From assembly GCA_034437755.1 (NCBI GenBank), contig DAOTTV010000078.1, forward strand, positions 1 through 64,000: a stretch of 64,000 bases of DNA, given 5' to 3'. This DNA is from Anaerolineae bacterium. GTDB lineage: Bacteria; Chloroflexota; Anaerolineae; Aggregatilineales; Phototrophicaceae. The notes under the pieces were generated by a model. It ran no database searches and was not told where the DNA came from. It saw only the letters and a list, made by a program, of their open reading frames with translations. The first letter of the stretch is position 1; each line of letters begins with the position of its first letter. A program made the position numbers and the translations under genes. Below are positions 1,746-58,616 of the stretch, one piece after another.

Positions 1746-3158
<1,413 letters not shown>

Positions 3159-3178
3159 AACCTCAGGGAGGTCATCTG

Positions 3179-3622
3179 ATGCCGATTCACGTTGAACTCG
3201 TGACGCAAGAGCGCAAAGTTTTTGAAGAGAAGGAAGCCGATATGATCGTCGTGCCGGCCGTCGAAGGCGAGATGGGCGTGTTGCCCGGTCATGCGCCTGT
3301 GTTGACGACGATGGGCTATGGCGAGCTGGTCATCCGCAAAGAAGGTGCAGAAGAACGCTTCGCCATTTATGGCGGCGTGGTTGATGTGCGACCGGATAAG
3401 GTCGTCGTGCTGGCGGATCTCGCGGACTCGTCCTTCGATCTGAACGTTGAGAAAGCGCAAGAAGCCCGCGAACGCGCTGAGAAAATGATGGAAGAAGGCG
3501 TGCCAGAAGAGCAAAACCGTGAGGCGACACTGGCTTTACGGCGCGCGGAACTCCAGTTGAAAGTGGCGCGTAAAGTGCGCGATCAAAGCGCTTTGCGGAT
3601 TGTGGATCAAGACGACAACTAA
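3179..3622 (+). CDS. atpC: F0F1 ATP synthase epsilon subunit.
   Basis: 147 aa; the N-terminal beta-sandwich (MPIHVELVTQERKVF..VVPAVEGEMGVLPGHAP) plus a C-terminal helical hairpin are typical of epsilon. It is the last gene of the operon. Confidence 0.9.
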   Translation: MPIHVELVTQERKVFEEKEADMIVVPAVEGEMGVLPGHAPVLTTMGYGELVIRKEGAEERFAIYGGVVDVRPDKVVVLADLADSSFDLNVEKAQEARERAEKMMEEGVPEEQNREATLALRRAELQLKVARKVRDQSALRIVDQDDN

Positions 3623-3652
3623 ACAACCGCGCACGACAATCTGCGATTGAAT

Positions 3653-3688
3653 GCGACGCTCGTTAGCAAAACGGGCGTTGCTTTTTTT
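3653..3688 (+). terminator. Putative intrinsic terminator of the atp operon.
   Basis: A 7-bp stem GCGACGC/GCGTTGC (one G-T wobble) followed by TTTTTTT, 30 nt after the atpC stop. Confidence 0.4.
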
Positions 3689-3747
3689 ACACCATGGTAT
3701 ACAGTATCATGGTAATCGATGGTCTATCATAGTTGAAAGCACAAGGC

Positions 3748-4770
3748 ATGTTCTCCAAAAGGCTTGGAGTGGACTTAGGGACGATCAACGTCCTGATTTA
3801 TGAGCGCAATCAAATCGTGCTACAAGAGCCGTCATTGGTAGCACTTGAAATCGAAGAGACAGGTGACGAGCGCATCATCGAGCTCGGTCAACCCGCGCGC
3901 GAGATGATCGGGCGTGTCGATGACGAAGGGATTCGCATTCTGCGCCCGTTACAAAATGGTGTGATCGCCGATTACGAAGTCACAGCCGAGATGCTGGCGT
4001 ATTTCTTCAGCAAAGCCGCTGGACGGATGCGTCTCTTCCGCCCGACGGTGATGATTAGCGTCCCATGGGGCGTGACCAGCGTCGAGAAACGCGCCGTCGA
4101 AGAAGCGGCACTGGCGGCGGGCGCTAAAGAGGCGTATTTGATATGGGAACCACTGGCGGCGGCGATTGGCGCGGGCTTGCCTGTCGGCACACCTGCCGGT
4201 GATATGGTGGTCAACATCGGGGGCGGCATCACCGAAGCGGCGGTTATCACCATGAACCACATCATTCGCGCCGAGAGTGGGCGTGTCGGCGGTTTAAAGC
4301 TTGACGATGCCATCGCGAGCTATGTCCGGCGTAAGTATAACCTCATCATCGGGCAACAGACCGCAGAGTCGATCAAGATTCAAGTCGGGGCGGCGGTCGA
4401 TCTCGAAGATGAGTTGACGATGGATGTACAGGGGCGCGATAACGTCAGCGGTTTGCCACGCACGATCACGATTACAACGGGCGAAGTGGTCGAAGCCTTG
4501 CACGACCCCTTGCTGAGTGTCGCGGGTGTGGTCAAAAGCGTCTTGGGCAATACACCGCCGGAACTCGCATCGGATATTATCGATCGTGGGATTGTGCTGA
4601 CGGGGGGCGGCGCACTTTTGCGCGGGTTAGATCAATTCCTGACCAAAGAGACCGGTGTGCCTGTTTTTCGAGCAGATAATCCTATGATTTCAGTGGCGAC
4701 CGGCGCTGGACGCGCACTAGAAGACCCCGCTATTTTGCGACGCTTACAGGAGCGTCGTAACCCCTACTAG
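3748..4770 (+). CDS. mreB: Rod-shape determining actin homolog MreB.
   Basis: MFSKRLGVDLGTINVLIY.., the actin-fold phosphate loops, and GGGALLRGLD at the C-terminus. The track ORF begins at a TTG at 3733; ATG 3748 matches the usual MreB N-terminus. Confidence 0.85.
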   Translation: MFSKRLGVDLGTINVLIYERNQIVLQEPSLVALEIEETGDERIIELGQPAREMIGRVDDEGIRILRPLQNGVIADYEVTAEMLAYFFSKAAGRMRLFRPTVMISVPWGVTSVEKRAVEEAALAAGAKEAYLIWEPLAAAIGAGLPVGTPAGDMVVNIGGGITEAAVITMNHIIRAESGRVGGLKLDDAIASYVRRKYNLIIGQQTAESIKIQVGAAVDLEDELTMDVQGRDNVSGLPRTITITTGEVVEALHDPLLSVAGVVKSVLGNTPPELASDIIDRGIVLTGGGALLRGLDQFLTKETGVPVFRADNPMISVATGAGRALEDPAILRRLQERRNPY

Positions 4771-4795
4771 ACCCAAAAGGGGCGATAGACATCGC

Positions 4796-4960
4796 GTAAC
4801 TACTCAGGTAGAGTCTTCTTGTGGGGTTTCACCCCACGCCCCAGCAGGTGATGTCTCCCTTGCACCCCAATTTTGCCGAACGCAAAGCGTTCGGCGAGTA
4901 CAGGTTCAACGGACGATCGTCCTTCGTGGGGGTTCGGGGGCAACGCCCCTGAGTAGTTAC
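4796..4960. mobile_element. MITE-like non-autonomous element, family 1, copy A (165 bp).
   Basis: Perfect 13-bp terminal inverted repeats GTAACTACTCAGG / CCTGAGTAGTTAC. It is flanked by a perfect 8-bp direct repeat GACATCGC (4788-4795 and 4961-4968). It is about 90% identical to a second copy at 51206-51368. Internal palindromes include GGACGATCGTCC and GCCGAACGC-AAA-GCGTTCGGC. Confidence 0.6.
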
Positions 4961-4976
4961 GACATCGCCCTCAGTA

Positions 4977-5615
4977 TTAATCGTCATCGTTTAGATAGTA
5001 CGTCATATGCTGGAGATGAACAACGGGATCGATATATTGCACCATCACATCGTCCGGCACATCAAGGCTAATGGGCGCGTAGTTCAAAATCGCTTTGACC
5101 CCCGCTTGCACGATGGTATCCGTAACAGCTTGCGCGACTTCGGCAGGCACAGCGACCATCGCGATCGACACGTTATTTTCGGTGATTATCTGCTCCAGGT
5201 CGTCGATGTGAAAGACGGGAAACCCGCCGATCGTCTGCCCGACCTTGCTCTCATCGGAGTCAAAAAGCCAGGCAATACGAAAGCCGCGATCCGTGAAGCC
5301 GCGGTAATGGGAGATTGCGCTCCCCAGATTACCCGCGCCAACCACAGCAACGCGCCATTCACGATTGACTTGCAAGACCTGACGTAATTTCTCGACAAGA
5401 AATTCGATCTGGTAACCAGTTCCCTGCTTACCAAACCCACCAAAGTGCGATAGGTCTTTGCGTATCTGTGCAGAGCTAATCCCCAAGCGTCGCCCTAACT
5501 CATGCGATGAAGTCACATCACGCCCTTCTTGTTTCAGGCGGTCTAAAGCCCGCAAATAAAGCGGTAAGCGACCAATGACGATGTCAGGAATGCGATCTGA
5601 CAACTTAGACGGCAT
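4977..5615 (-). CDS. rex: Redox-sensing transcriptional repressor Rex.
   Basis: N-terminal winged helix (..IGRLPLYLRALDRL..) plus a Rossmann NADH-binding domain (WRVAVVGAGNLGSA). Start chosen at MPSKLSD with an AAGGA RBS; the track ORF extends 17 codons further upstream. Confidence 0.85.
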   Translation of the reverse strand: MPSKLSDRIPDIVIGRLPLYLRALDRLKQEGRDVTSSHELGRRLGISSAQIRKDLSHFGGFGKQGTGYQIEFLVEKLRQVLQVNREWRVAVVGAGNLGSAISHYRGFTDRGFRIAWLFDSDESKVGQTIGGFPVFHIDDLEQIITENNVSIAMVAVPAEVAQAVTDTIVQAGVKAILNYAPISLDVPDDVMVQYIDPVVHLQHMTYYLNDDD

Positions 5616-5842: not shown

Positions 5843-7234
5843 ATGGCTGTTAGACGTTCACTTTTTATCTTACTTCTCCTGATTATCATCTTGCCAACAT
5901 GGGCATTCCAGAATAGCAACCAACCGACATCGGGCGAAGCGTCGATCCGTCTGAGCGATCTTCAGTTATACGAAGTTCGGCGGGGTAATGTCGCCCTGAC
6001 GGTGAACGCTATCGGTGCGATTGCACCGGATAACGACGTTCAACTGAGTTTTCTCACGGCTGGCGAAGTCGCAGATGTCTTTGTCCAGCGCGATGAGTAC
6101 GTGCTTGCTGGGGATACGCTGATGCGCCTCGAAAATGAGTTGCAACGCATCAGCTACGAACAAGCCCTGATCGCGCTCGAACGCGCTGAACTTCAGTTAC
6201 AAGATTTGCTCGAAGTAGACGAAGAGACGATTCGCCTAGCGGAACTCGGGGTCGAGAATGCGCGTGCGGCTTACCGGAGCGTGGTCAATGCTGTTCTGCC
6301 CAGTGACATCGAAGCGGCAGAAGTGGCGTACAGTCAGGCGTTAGAATTTGCCGACTCTCTGCGACAACAACGCGATGCTGTCGGCGGGCAAGTGGGCAGT
6401 GAAAATATCCAATGGCAACAGGCAAACGCCGCCTATGGCGAGGCGACATTTCAAGCGGAGATCGCCCGCTTACAAGTCGAACGTCTGCGTAACAGCACCT
6501 TCCCACAAGCGAACGTCGCGCTGGCAGGCATTGCGGAAGCCGAAGCCCAACTCCAACAGGTACGCGCCGGTCCGACAGAAGCCGAGCGTGAGGCGACACA
6601 AAGCCAGATTGAACAGGCTCAAGTTCAGCTTGATCGCGCCGAAGTCGCGTACAATCGCACGATCTTAGAAGCCCCATTCGATGGCGTAATCACCGCGGTG
6701 AATGCCGAGATTGGATCGCTCGCCGCCCCGGGCTTGACGGTCATCGAACTGATGGATGTTTCGCCACTGGGCTTGACCGTACAAGTCGATGAGATTGATA
6801 TTGATCTGGTCGAGATCGGTCTACCAACGCGGGTAACATTAGACGCACTGCCGAACTTGCAATTTCCTGCTACTGTGATCAGTATCGCGCCTATCGGCAC
6901 GCCATCGGGCGGTATCGTCAGCTATGATGTTGACATTGCGCTGGATGGCGATGATCCGCGCGTGCGCGTCGGTATGACTGCCGATGCATCGATCGTTATT
7001 GAAGAGACACAAGATGTACTAGTCGTGCCAAATTTGTATATCCGGCGCGATCGCACGACCGGACAATCCTTCGTCAACGTCCTGCGCGGAGATGACACCG
7101 TTGAAGAAGTCGAGGTCGAAATCGGCATCCAAGGACGCGAGACGAGCGAAGTCATCAGTGGGATTGAAGAAGGCGCACTCGTCGCCATTGATTTGAGTGG
7201 ACGCGGGCTTAACATCCTCGGAGGTGGGCAATGA
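5843..7234 (+). CDS. HlyD-family periplasmic adaptor (membrane fusion protein), first of two.
   Basis: N-terminal signal/anchor, a biotinyl-lipoyl-like segment (LSFLTAGEVADVFVQRDEYVLAGDTLMRLE), a long coiled-coil hairpin and a beta-barrel domain. Confidence 0.75.
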   Translation: MAVRRSLFILLLLIIILPTWAFQNSNQPTSGEASIRLSDLQLYEVRRGNVALTVNAIGAIAPDNDVQLSFLTAGEVADVFVQRDEYVLAGDTLMRLENELQRISYEQALIALERAELQLQDLLEVDEETIRLAELGVENARAAYRSVVNAVLPSDIEAAEVAYSQALEFADSLRQQRDAVGGQVGSENIQWQQANAAYGEATFQAEIARLQVERLRNSTFPQANVALAGIAEAEAQLQQVRAGPTEAEREATQSQIEQAQVQLDRAEVAYNRTILEAPFDGVITAVNAEIGSLAAPGLTVIELMDVSPLGLTVQVDEIDIDLVEIGLPTRVTLDALPNLQFPATVISIAPIGTPSGGIVSYDVDIALDGDDPRVRVGMTADASIVIEETQDVLVVPNLYIRRDRTTGQSFVNVLRGDDTVEEVEVEIGIQGRETSEVISGIEEGALVAIDLSGRGLNILGGGQ

Positions 7235-44252: not shown

Positions 44253-44390
44253 GGTTCTTTCGTATCTTGCGTGGTCAAGCTCTTTTTGTTCCCTTTTTTC
44301 AAAATGAACAAAGTCAAGGAACAACAGTTCCTTGTAGGGGTGCGAGGGCAAAGCCCCTGCAACAAAAACCACGCGACATCCCAAAGAGCC
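44253..44390. mobile_element. MITE-like element family 2, copy 1 (138 bp), 29 bp upstream of folD.
   Basis: Imperfect TIRs GGTTCTTTCG...CCAAAGAGCC (ISL3-like GGCTCTTT ends). Flanked by an 8-bp direct repeat ATTTACT(C/T). It is about 90% identical to 53537-53720 apart from a 46-bp indel. Internal hairpins (GTTCC...GGAAC, GGGC-AAA-GCCC). Confidence 0.5.
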
Positions 44391-50632: not shown

Positions 50633-51145
50633 ATGACCATTCTCCCCGATGTTCTGCAAGCAGACTTGACGCTCGTGTTTTGTGGGACAGCCGCAAGTGA
50701 TGTCTCGGCGCGGGAAGGTGCATATTACGCCAACCCGACGAATTACTTCTGGCGCACGCTGTACGATGTCGGTTTGATTCCTGTTCGCCTACCGGCGGCA
50801 CAGTTCCGGCAATTACCGCGCTACGGCATCGGCTTGACTGATCTGGTCAAGCACGCACAGGGCAACGACAGTGATCTGCGCGACGAAGATTACGACGTGG
50901 AACGTCTCCGGCAAAATATCGCCACTCACCGCCCGCAAATCTTGGCTTTCACCAGCAAGAAAGCGGCATCGGTCGTTCTCCAGCGCCCGACGGGCAAAAT
51001 TGACTATGGCTTGCAAGCCGCGACACTGGACAACACGAAACTCTGGGTGCTAACGTCGCCGTCTGGCTCAGCACGTCGCTACTGGGATATTGCTGTGTGG
51101 CAAGGCTTGGCGGATTATATCGCCGGCTTGGACAATCTGCCCTAG
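50633..51145 (+). CDS. mug: G/U mismatch-specific uracil-DNA glycosylase (UDG family 2, Mug/TDG-like).
   Basis: LVFCGTAASDVSA...ANPTNYFWRTL...LTDLVK motifs of the Mug family. Confidence 0.8.
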   Translation: MTILPDVLQADLTLVFCGTAASDVSAREGAYYANPTNYFWRTLYDVGLIPVRLPAAQFRQLPRYGIGLTDLVKHAQGNDSDLRDEDYDVERLRQNIATHRPQILAFTSKKAASVVLQRPTGKIDYGLQAATLDNTKLWVLTSPSGSARRYWDIAVWQGLADYIAGLDNLP

Positions 51146-51205
51146 TTGGGAACGATTGCGGTTAATGGCGTGTCTGCGTGTATATAGAGAGAACGCGAGT
51201 CACTC

Positions 51206-51368
51206 GCAACTACTCAGGTAGAGCCTTCTTGTGGGGTTTACCCCACGCCCCAGCAGGGGATGTCTCCCTTGCACCCCATTTTTGCCGAACGCTTCGTGTT
51301 TGGCGGGTACAGGTTCAAAGGACGATCGTCCTTTATGGGGTTCGGGGGCAACGCTCCTGAGTAGTTAC
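51206..51368. mobile_element. MITE-like element family 1, copy B (163 bp).
   Basis: TIRs GCAACTACTCAGG / CCTGAGTAGTTAC (12 of 13 match). Perfect 8-bp target-site duplication AGTCACTC (51198-51205 and 51369-51376). Homologous to 4796-4960. Confidence 0.6.
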
Positions 51369-51472
51369 AGTCACTCTATGTATGTGATGGCGGATTCTGT
51401 ACAATGGTTCGATGAATATCTAAGCGTGCGTTTTTTAGCCCATTCAACTGATCAACTAGTAAGCAAGCCATT

Positions 51473-52474
51473 TTGGACATCATGACACCACCGACTTATT
51501 CGATTGTCGCCCCTGTATACAACGAAGAAGGCAACCTACACGTATTTTATGAGCGTGTCGCTGAGACGATGAATCGCCTCGACGAAACATGGGAACTGAT
51601 TCTAGTCAATGACGGTAGCCGCGACGGATCATATGACATCATGCAAGACCTCGCCACCCGCGATGGCAAGGTACGCTATGTGAACTTCGCCCGCAATTTC
51701 GGTCACCAGACGGCTGTCACCGCCGGCATCGACTATGCGACGGGTGACGCGGTCATCCTCATCGACAGTGATTTACAAGACCCACCGGAAGTGATCGCCG
51801 ATTTGATCGAACAGTGGAAAGCGGGTTACGATGTCGTGTACGCTGTGCGCGCCGATCGACGGGGCGAAAGCTGGTTTAAGTTGGCGACAGCGAAGATGTT
51901 CTACCGCGTGCTATACCGCATTACGGATGTTGATATTCCGCTGGATACGGGCGACTTTCGGCTGATGGATCGGCAGGTAGCGGATGTTCTGCGCCAGATG
52001 CGCGAACACAATCGCTTCATACGCGGCATGACCAGCTGGGCGGGCTTCAAGCAGACGGGGGTCGAATACGTGCGCCACGCGCGCGAGTGGGGCGAGACCA
52101 AATATCCCCTGCGTAAAATGCTCAACTTCGCGTTAGATGCCGTGACGAGCTTCTCGTTCTTCCCCTTGCAAATCATGGCGTATGCCAGTTCATTTCTGGC
52201 GATGGTCGCGATTTTAGTCGCCATCGTGATTTCAGCCTTGCGACTATCATTCGGTGAGGAATTCTTCGGCGGGCAGGCGACGACGATCGTTCTGTTGTTG
52301 CTGTTGAGTTCATTCCAGCTCTTCTTCTTATTTTTGATGGGGCAGTACATCGCCCGCATCTACGACGAGACACGCGGTCGCCCCTTATACGTGGTGGCGA
52401 AAACCGGCGGCTTCGACCAAACGCAAGCATCTCCCCCACCTCATGAAGACGTTGAGAAGGAGTCGAATATCTGA
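51473..52474 (+). CDS. GT2 glycosyltransferase (polyprenyl-phosphate sugar synthase, DPM1/GtrB-like).
   Basis: SIVAPVYNEE, DGSRDGS, the DxD (DSDLQD) motif and two C-terminal TM helices. Confidence 0.85.
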   Translation: MDIMTPPTYSIVAPVYNEEGNLHVFYERVAETMNRLDETWELILVNDGSRDGSYDIMQDLATRDGKVRYVNFARNFGHQTAVTAGIDYATGDAVILIDSDLQDPPEVIADLIEQWKAGYDVVYAVRADRRGESWFKLATAKMFYRVLYRITDVDIPLDTGDFRLMDRQVADVLRQMREHNRFIRGMTSWAGFKQTGVEYVRHAREWGETKYPLRKMLNFALDAVTSFSFFPLQIMAYASSFLAMVAILVAIVISALRLSFGEEFFGGQATTIVLLLLLSSFQLFFLFLMGQYIARIYDETRGRPLYVVAKTGGFDQTQASPPPHEDVEKESNI

Positions 52475-53536: not shown

Positions 53537-53720
53537 GGGTCTTTCGTATTTTGCGTGGTCACGCTCTTTTTGTTCCCTTTTTGAAAAAAGGGAACGCCAA
53601 AAACTTTTGCTTTTTGAACGCTGTTCGTTCAAAATGAACAAGGTCAAGGAACTATCTTTCCTTATGGGAGTGCGGGGGCAAAGCCCCTGCCACAAAAACC
53701 ACGCGACATTCCAAAGAGCC
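53537..53720. mobile_element. MITE-like element family 2, copy 2 (184 bp), 41 bp upstream of the F420 gene cluster.
   Basis: TIRs GGGTCTTTCG...CCAAAGAGCC. Perfect 8-bp target-site duplication GAGTTTAT (53529-53536 and 53721-53728). Carries 46 bp not present in copy 1. Confidence 0.5.
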
Positions 53721-57581: not shown

Positions 57582-58589
57582 ATGTCCGATCGAGTAGGCT
57601 TATACTTGCAGGATGACTTCACGCTGGCGGATTCGATTGATTTCGTCAAGTATGCAGAGGCGCGCGGTTTCGAGAGCGTCTGGCAATCCGAGACGCGCCT
57701 CGTGCGCGATTGCATCGTGCCGATGGCGGCTTATGCGACCGTTACCTCGCGCATTCGCATTGGTGCCGGCGTGATGAATATCTGGACGCGCAACGTGGCG
57801 ACGATGGCAGCGGAACTAGTGACGCTCGATGACATCGCGCGTGATCGTATCATCTGCGGGCTAGGCACGTGGTACGACCCGCTCGCGGCGCAGGTCGGCG
57901 TGACGCGGCGCAAGCACCTGTTCGCCATGCGCGAAGTGTTGACAACCCTCAAACGTCTCATGCAGTTCGAGCGCGTGACGTATCGTGGCGAGTTCGTCCA
58001 TCTCGATGACGTGCATCTCGACATCGTGACCGGACGGCGACAAGCGCGCCGCATCCCGTTTTATATCGGCGCGACCGGCGCAAAGACGCTGGCACTCGCG
58101 GGGGAAATCGCCGATGGCGTGCTGTTGAATTATCTCGTATCGCCCCATTACAACGAGATGGCGATCGCCCAGATCGAAATCGGCGCGAAGCAAGCCGACC
58201 GCCTCTTACATCACATCGACCGCCCGCAATTGATCGTCTGCTCTGTCAGTGTTAATCGTGATGATGCGCTGAACACCGCCCGTCGTCTCGTGGCACAGTA
58301 CATCGTGCAACAACCCCAGCTGATGCGCGCCAACGGCATGCCGCAGGGCTTGATTGACGAACTGGCGCAAGTTTTACCGCCGACAGCCTCATTAGAACGC
58401 ATCGAACAGGCGATGACGCTAGTGCCTGATGATGTCGTACAGATGGTCACAGCGTCCGGCACGCCCGATGAAGTCAAAGCTAAAGTGCGCCAGTATGTCG
58501 CTTCTGGCACGACGATGCCGGTGCTATATCCGCTCGGGCGTGATGTGCGTTTGCTGATTGATACGTTCGCAAATGGCTATTCAAGCTGA
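57582..58589 (+). CDS. Luciferase-like monooxygenase (LLM) class F420-dependent oxidoreductase.
   Basis: TIM-barrel LLM motifs (FESVWQSET, IGAGVMNIW). Start at MSDRVG with a GGGGAGAG RBS. Confidence 0.8.
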   Translation: MSDRVGLYLQDDFTLADSIDFVKYAEARGFESVWQSETRLVRDCIVPMAAYATVTSRIRIGAGVMNIWTRNVATMAAELVTLDDIARDRIICGLGTWYDPLAAQVGVTRRKHLFAMREVLTTLKRLMQFERVTYRGEFVHLDDVHLDIVTGRRQARRIPFYIGATGAKTLALAGEIADGVLLNYLVSPHYNEMAIAQIEIGAKQADRLLHHIDRPQLIVCSVSVNRDDALNTARRLVAQYIVQQPQLMRANGMPQGLIDELAQVLPPTASLERIEQAMTLVPDDVVQMVTASGTPDEVKAKVRQYVASGTTMPVLYPLGRDVRLLIDTFANGYSS

Positions 58590-58616
58590 TTGATACGTTC
58601 GCAAATGGCTATTCAA
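58553..58616. repeat. Perfect 32-bp tandem duplication (two copies) spanning the stop codon of the LLM gene.
   Basis: GCTGATTGATACGTTCGCAAATGGCTATTCAA repeated head-to-tail at 58553-58584 and 58585-58616. Confidence 0.7.

Follow-up and report, generated by a model that had tools for sequence, protein, structure and literature searches.

A short non-coding repeat inserted with 8-bp target duplications in a Chloroflexota genome is very probably a MITE of the ISBst12 group of IS66

The spacer between the convergent genes mreB and rex of an Anaerolineae bacterium is occupied by a 165-bp sequence that recurs elsewhere on the same contig, and the question raised by this locus is what sort of repeat it represents, which transposase could have moved it, and whether its strong fold serves the host. 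The window referred to below is the whole stretch of DNA that was analysed (64,000 nucleotides), and the repeat is designated the family-1 element. Copy A (positions 4796–4960, 165 bp) begins 25 bp after the stop codon of mreB (3748–4770, plus strand; Pfam MreB_Mbl) and lies 16 bp from the stop codon of the redox-sensing repressor gene rex (4977–5615, minus strand), the nearest named homologues of which belong to the Phototrophicaceae, Aggregatilineales and Anaerolineae (Chloroflexota). Its left inverted repeat (TIR; 4796–4808, plus strand) is GTAACTACTCAGG and its right TIR (4948–4960, minus strand) is CCTGAGTAGTTAC, with agreement at 13 of 13 positions; the 8-mer GACATCGC stands on both sides as a target-site duplication (TSD; 4788–4795 and 4961–4968). 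Copy B (51206–51368, 163 bp) has the same orientation and is located 52 bp past a UDG-superfamily (mismatch-specific DNA glycosylase-like) gene (50633–51145, plus strand) and 104 bp ahead of the start codon of a family-2 glycosyltransferase gene (51473–52474, plus strand). Its left TIR, GCAACTACTCAGG (51206–51218, plus strand), carries a mismatch at position 2 (GCAAC), leaving 12 of 13 positions in agreement with the right TIR (51356–51368, minus strand), and its TSDs (51198–51205 and 51369–51376) both read AGTCACTC.

Alignment of the two copies over 165 positions shows 16 differences (approximately 90% identity), and the likeness ends exactly at the tips of the TIRs. An earlier sequence-only reading of this DNA had given the coordinates, the identity, the TIR matches and the perfect but differing 8-bp repeats, all of which proved exact; its placing of both copies in intergenic DNA downstream of genes also stands, with the addition that copy B precedes a gene too; no promoter-like site was detected at copy B. 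When up to two mismatches are allowed, the 13-mer GTAACTACTCAGG occurs at five sites in the window, where 0.48 are expected and none of 100 shuffled sequences reaches five, and four of the five are the ends of copies A and B. A third copy (C) was located approximately 8 kb upstream of window position 1, at 2502–2665 of locus L001, between genes for an H+-pyrophosphatase and a GDSL-lipase. With 94.5% identity to copy A, it carries a mutated right terminus (AATTAC) and is bounded by TTGTTATG and TTATTATG, which match at seven of eight positions. This Chloroflexota genome therefore holds three copies in approximately 72 kb. As had been proposed, an element of 163–165 bp is too small for a transposase, and it has no coding capacity: the overlapping open reading frames are only 52–84 residues long, extend into the unrelated flanks, and differ between copies.

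The window is 99.95–100% identical to contigs of the NCBI MAG GCA_964509265.1, of JGI 3300012009 and of an ENA microbial-mat metagenome. Over 13,158 shared bases it shows three differences from L001 and six from L002, of which two and four, respectively, fall inside copy A. Each of these copy A variants (4849, 4860, 4870 and 4897) changes to the base found in copy C, through either gene conversion between the copies or the mixing of paralogous reads during assembly.

Direct evidence on how these copies came to their present positions is provided by a close relative in which the flanking DNA is approximately 92–95% identical and both sites are empty. At the site of copy A, four independent assemblies (L323–L326) possess an mreB–rex spacer of just 33 bp, reading ...GGGCGATA GACATCGC CCCCGG..., between genes with approximately 92% nucleotide identity to those of the window. 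At the site of copy B, the same relative (L330) reads ...GGACGCG AGTCACTC TATGTATG..., again with no element. When aligned to the empty allele by BLAST, the two flanks of each insertion share exactly 8 bp there, and each 8-mer is present once; the 8-mers thus arose by duplication and do not belong to some longer conserved stretch. The empty-site alleles for which the sequence-only reading had recommended a search thus exist for copies A and B, and its MITE interpretation is borne out: the family-1 element is a non-coding MITE whose transposition duplicated 8 bp of the target. Were it instead derived from a gene, or a REP-type repeat of the host, the 8-mers would be embedded in a longer conserved sequence. 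The TSDs differ among the copies (GACATCGC in A, AGTCACTC in B, TTGTTATG/TTATTATG in C), the flanks of all three are unrelated outside the 8-mers, and the empty sites contain a single 8-mer, which leaves such a repeat next to no probability and agrees with its dismissal in the earlier reading.

Locus L330 also differs from the window in a second respect. A segment of approximately 1.08 kb (L330 2699–3783) carrying a gene of the amino-acid-kinase family (315 residues) lies between its UDG-family and glycosyltransferase genes and is absent from the window, where the breakpoint is found at approximately 51146–51150, some 50 bp from copy B, and no other part of the window carries this gene.

The empty allele further reveals what was interrupted by copy A. 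On the rex side of the spacer (L323 2200–2240) folding indicates an 8-bp GC-rich hairpin, GGGGCGAU-GUCU-AUCGCCC, followed by UUUUU (-15.4 kcal/mol); this hairpin is clear by folding but was not called by the pattern-based terminator scan. The copy A target GACATCGC comprises the loop and 3′ arm of this terminator-like hairpin downstream of rex, so in the window, where the site corresponds to 4772–4800 and 4956–4985, the rex side keeps no hairpin, and the rex transcript probably now runs through copy A. A shortened 5-bp hairpin, followed by CCCC and UUUU, is seen beyond copy A.

Whether the host has also put this transposon relic to use as a structured RNA (terminator, mRNA 3′ stabiliser or small RNA) deserves separate consideration. 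Either strand of the element gives a very stable fold (z = -6.0 to -7.0), copy A occupies the 3′ region common to the convergent mreB and rex, and it has split a terminator-like hairpin which is whole in the empty allele. In addition, the central hairpin of copy A (GCCGAACGC-AAA-GCGTTCGGC, 4875–4895), one among several internal palindromes, is kept in copy B through two G-U-compatible changes, in which the sequence-only reading had seen a hint of constraint at the RNA level. Any element that has TIRs and several internal palindromes would, however, fold strongly, and the two changes, though real, are one-sided (G-C to G-U) and both C-to-T at CpG, the commonest mutation. Two changes in the 18 positions of the central stem also equal the average for the element. 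Among the four distinct sequences available, which afford little power, none of the 57 consensus pairs is compensatory, five show one-sided changes, and four are broken, the TIR stem accounting for two of these; for the same four sequences the covariation term comes to +0.19. A search of Rfam returned nothing at gathering score, the sole match with E ≤ 1 being a chance hit to eiav_FSE at 15 bits against a cut-off of 40. No intrinsic terminator (a hairpin with a T-run) was detected in or around copy A, and near copy B the terminator scan found a single site, at the junction of element and flank on the minus strand. A relative, moreover, lacks the element at both sites. RNA-level constraint, such as the terminator or small RNA suggested earlier, is not supported, and adoption by the host appears very unlikely; the family-1 copies are most likely neutral intergenic passengers.

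Since the family-1 MITE lacks a transposase gene, it must be mobilised in trans. Ends beginning with GTAA, together with an 8-bp direct repeat, point to IS66 under the ISfinder criteria; the family-1 ends start with 5′-GTAA and are accompanied by an 8-bp direct repeat, and ISDge4 agrees in this. A scan of viral contigs for GTAACTACTCAGGT yielded one locus (L172) with two inverted matches 1.8 kb apart. These delimit an element of 1835 bp (L172 2463–4297) with perfect 17-bp TIRs (GTAACTACTCAGGTAGG), an 8-bp TSD (TCTTTTTG) and a single open reading frame of 535 residues, no other long frame being present. Its product is recognised by Pfam DDE_Tnp_IS66 (8.7e-36) and by NCBIfam transpos_IS66 (2.3e-79; 267 bits, where the cut-off is 180). 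Of its homologues, 24 were aligned, and from this alignment 80 metagenome loci with relatives at 36–100% identity were fetched. The terminus motif is found in 77 of these 80 transposase loci and, in 69, at both ends with a spacing of 1.47–2.29 kb; many of the 69 carry perfect 8-bp TSDs. Positions 1–12 of the autonomous ends, GTAACTA(C/T)TCAG, are near-invariant and those from 13 onward variable, a pattern partly conditioned on the search (ends were picked with at most two mismatches to the 13-mer), whereas the association in 77 of 80 loci is not.

The best-documented relative is ISDge4 of Deinococcus geothermalis, a member of the ISBst12 group of IS66 that possesses a single transposase gene, TIRs GTGACTACTCAGCA and GTAACTGCTCAGCA and an 8-bp direct repeat, and has been seen transposing; this first observation of transposition in the ISBst12 group was published in 2026 (PMC12898284). 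Each of its two ends matches the group terminus GTAACTACTCAG at 11 of the first 12 positions. The ISBst12 group and the family-1 MITE both make an 8-bp target duplication, and the ends of the single-ORF elements of 1.5–2.3 kb with DDE_Tnp_IS66 are identical to those of the MITE. A size of 1.5–2.3 kb and a single open reading frame define the ISBst12 group, from which it follows that the family-1 element is of the ISBst12 type. With this assignment resting on end sequence, TSD length and association, the element is very probably a non-autonomous MITE of the ISBst12 group (IS66 family), mobilised by an ISBst12-like transposase from elsewhere in the cell. Most likely, such a DDE transposase would recognise the 12–13-bp termini GTAACTACTCAG(G), as it would on the full-length elements of 1.5–2.3 kb, and would cut the target with an 8-bp stagger, the repair of which would produce the 8-bp direct repeats. 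The termini, the duplications, the empty sites and the agreement of the ends with those of elements encoding IS66-family transposases are observations; that a transposase has moved the element in trans in this genome, and which one it was, we infer.

Several searches bear on that source. A tblastn search of the window and of the adjoining 8 kb upstream revealed no gene for an IS66-family transposase. The interior of the family-1 element has no similarity outside this organism by BLAST against all fetched loci, the 80 autonomous elements included, and a search of the metagenome collection for the left-end 25-mer AACTACTCAGGTAGAGNCTTCTTGT recovered no further family-1 copies and no parent. Beside unpaired TIRs, or between distant TIR pairs, in the loci obtained by genome scan, only housekeeping frames were seen where transposase genes were sought, and viral contigs queried with the single L172 transposase yielded no relative besides itself. 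The divergence of 5–10%, together with fixed positions in three assemblies of the organism, indicates that the insertions are probably old; given that divergence, and with copies B and C each mutated at one terminus, the family may be inactive here.

One autonomous locus has an unusual arrangement. In L246, two ISBst12-type elements of 1833 bp (1874–3706 and 3715–5547) are placed head to tail with 8 bp (CCGGTTCG) between them, and the pair is flanked on both sides by this same 8-mer. The pair represents a tandem dimer of the IS or else an artefact of assembly.

An ISL3-, IS256- or IS1634-like transposase, the mobiliser envisaged in the sequence-only reading, would offer another explanation for the same MITE. 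An 8-bp TSD is compatible with ISL3 and IS256, and since ISL3-like ends are borne by another MITE family of the window, activity of an ISL3-type transposase in this genome, now or in the past, is possible. The ends of ISL3 and IS256 elements nevertheless begin with GG..., where those of family 1 begin with GTAAC, and IS1634 elements generate duplications of 5–6 bp. Against all three stands the identical 12–13-bp terminus on 69 of 80 elements with an IS66-family transposase. Derivation of the MITE from any of these families was accordingly rejected, as its ends (GTAACTACTCAGG) do not match their TIR consensus sequences. With the termini being those of ISBst12-group IS66 elements, in L172, in the 69 loci and in ISDge4, the earlier assignment has to be replaced, and its probability is very small.

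How the family-1 element compares with known systems may now be considered. It differs from the elements of the ISBst12 group in its length of 163–165 bp, in an inverted repeat of just 13 bp, and in an interior unrelated to that of the fetched autonomous elements. The classical bacterial MITEs, such as Correia of Neisseria, RUP of Streptococcus pneumoniae and MITEAba12 of Acinetobacter, are likewise short, non-coding, multi-copy and intergenic, and share with family 1 the possession of TIRs that match an IS, of TSDs and of a strong fold-back. They differ in transposase family, which in the case of family 1 is IS66/ISBst12; Correia and RUP are tied to IS630-type elements that duplicate TA. The canonical IS66 elements with three open reading frames (IS66, IS679 and ISEc8) have a transposase of the same Pfam and NCBIfam family as the L172-type partner. 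Their ends begin with GTAA, continue as GTAAGCG and are bordered by an 8-bp direct repeat, and the accessory genes tnpA and tnpB are present, whereas the L172-type partner elements have a single open reading frame and neither tnpA nor tnpB. MITEs of the ISL3 type make an 8-bp target duplication as family 1 does, but their ends differ, being GGCTCTTT... in ISL3-type elements. In the searchable literature no description of ISBst12-derived MITEs was found, and queries with the terminus sequence retrieved only unrelated primers. The earlier description of the element as novel consequently holds for the sequence family, which is new, and not for the type of terminus, which is known from ISDge4 (PMC12898284).

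To what extent such short elements occur elsewhere was examined with the pattern AACTACTCAGG, 120–150 bases and CCTGAGTAGTT, using one genome per species, for which approximately one chance match is expected. This TIR-pair pattern was found at at least 118 loci. Among the 114 listed elements with both flanks, 48 have TSDs matching at eight of eight positions and 15 at seven of eight, while the shifted control gave 0 and 1; the duplicated targets of the listed elements are AT-rich. The MAG labels among the matches listed include Methylomonas, Saprospiraceae, Nitrospirota, Ktedonobacteraceae, Anaerolineae, Elusimicrobia, Desulfobacterales, Trueperaceae, Patescibacteria and ANME-1 Methanophagales, together with others; since such labels can be wrong, the archaeal occurrence is to be treated cautiously. 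At a threshold of at least 75% identity over 70% of the length, clustering of the 121 listed elements, to which this organism contributes three, separated at least 58 clusters with no relationship to one another, copies A, B and C forming one of their own. So little is common to these clusters beyond the terminus that MITEs of this kind seem to have arisen many times, and the existence of many unrelated families with the same 12-nt terminus suggests that the requirement at the transposon end is very small. A more speculative view, which we put forward tentatively and consider rather doubtful, would place the short elements with GTAACTACTCAG ends in one MITE superfamily, so far uncatalogued and spread across prokaryotes, for which the 12–13-bp terminus alone would suffice for mobilisation in trans.

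The MITEs of one MAG labelled ANME-1 (L034, L057, L070, L074 and L082) cluster with L032, L053, L092, L095 and L119, whose MAG labels are Thermodesulfovibrionales and Desulfobacteraceae. This similarity resides largely in subterminal tandem heptamers, GGTTCAC on the left and GTGAACC on the right, and for this reason cross-domain transfer between ANME-1 archaea and sulfate reducers was rejected as an explanation of the cluster. The heptamers could be extra transposase-binding repeats; GGTTC(A/G) motifs are also seen inside the family-1 element of the window. A further locus, L066 (5213–6854), consists of a MITE (5213–5361), two paralogous open reading frames of approximately 235 residues and another right terminus at 6854, and might be either a cargo-carrying element with ISBst12-type ends or a case of a solo end.

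For annotation, the consequence is that a wrong guess as to the mobiliser is replaced by one that was tested. Ends of the GTAACTACTCAG type with an 8-bp duplication offer a simple signature by which these elements can be masked or catalogued in metagenome-assembled genomes, and elements such as family 1 are useful as markers of insertion polymorphism between Chloroflexota populations that are closely related. Little is known of the ISBst12 group, and the breadth of elements with termini of its type is a modest addition to knowledge. Nothing reported here will surprise a transposon specialist, as this is an ordinary kind of mobile DNA.

The second MITE family of the window is represented by copies at 44253–44390 and 53537–53720, the latter with an additional internal segment of 45 bp. 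Its ends are GG(T/G)TCTTTCG ... CCAAAGAGCC, and its 8-bp duplications are ATTTACTC/ATTTACTT and GAGTTTAT/GAGTTTAT. These ends (GG(C/T/G)TCTTT) resemble those of ISL3, and the ISL3 idea of the sequence-only reading fits this family, not family 1. Despite their different termini, both families contain a 20-nt module, GKKCGRGGGCAAMGCCCCTG (hairpin GGGC-AAM-GCCC), at 4932–4951 and 51340–51359 in family 1 and at 44340–44359 and 53670–53689 in the second family. All four matches in the window, where 0.02 are expected, lie inside the four elements of the two families, an enrichment that is partly circular because the pattern was derived from those copies. Among all fetched loci the module was seen only in this organism; it could be a host-selected part or have been exchanged between the two MITE families. 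Elsewhere in the window, at positions 58553–58616, a 32-bp unit (GCTGATTGATACGTTCGCAAATGGCTATTCAA) is duplicated perfectly in tandem.
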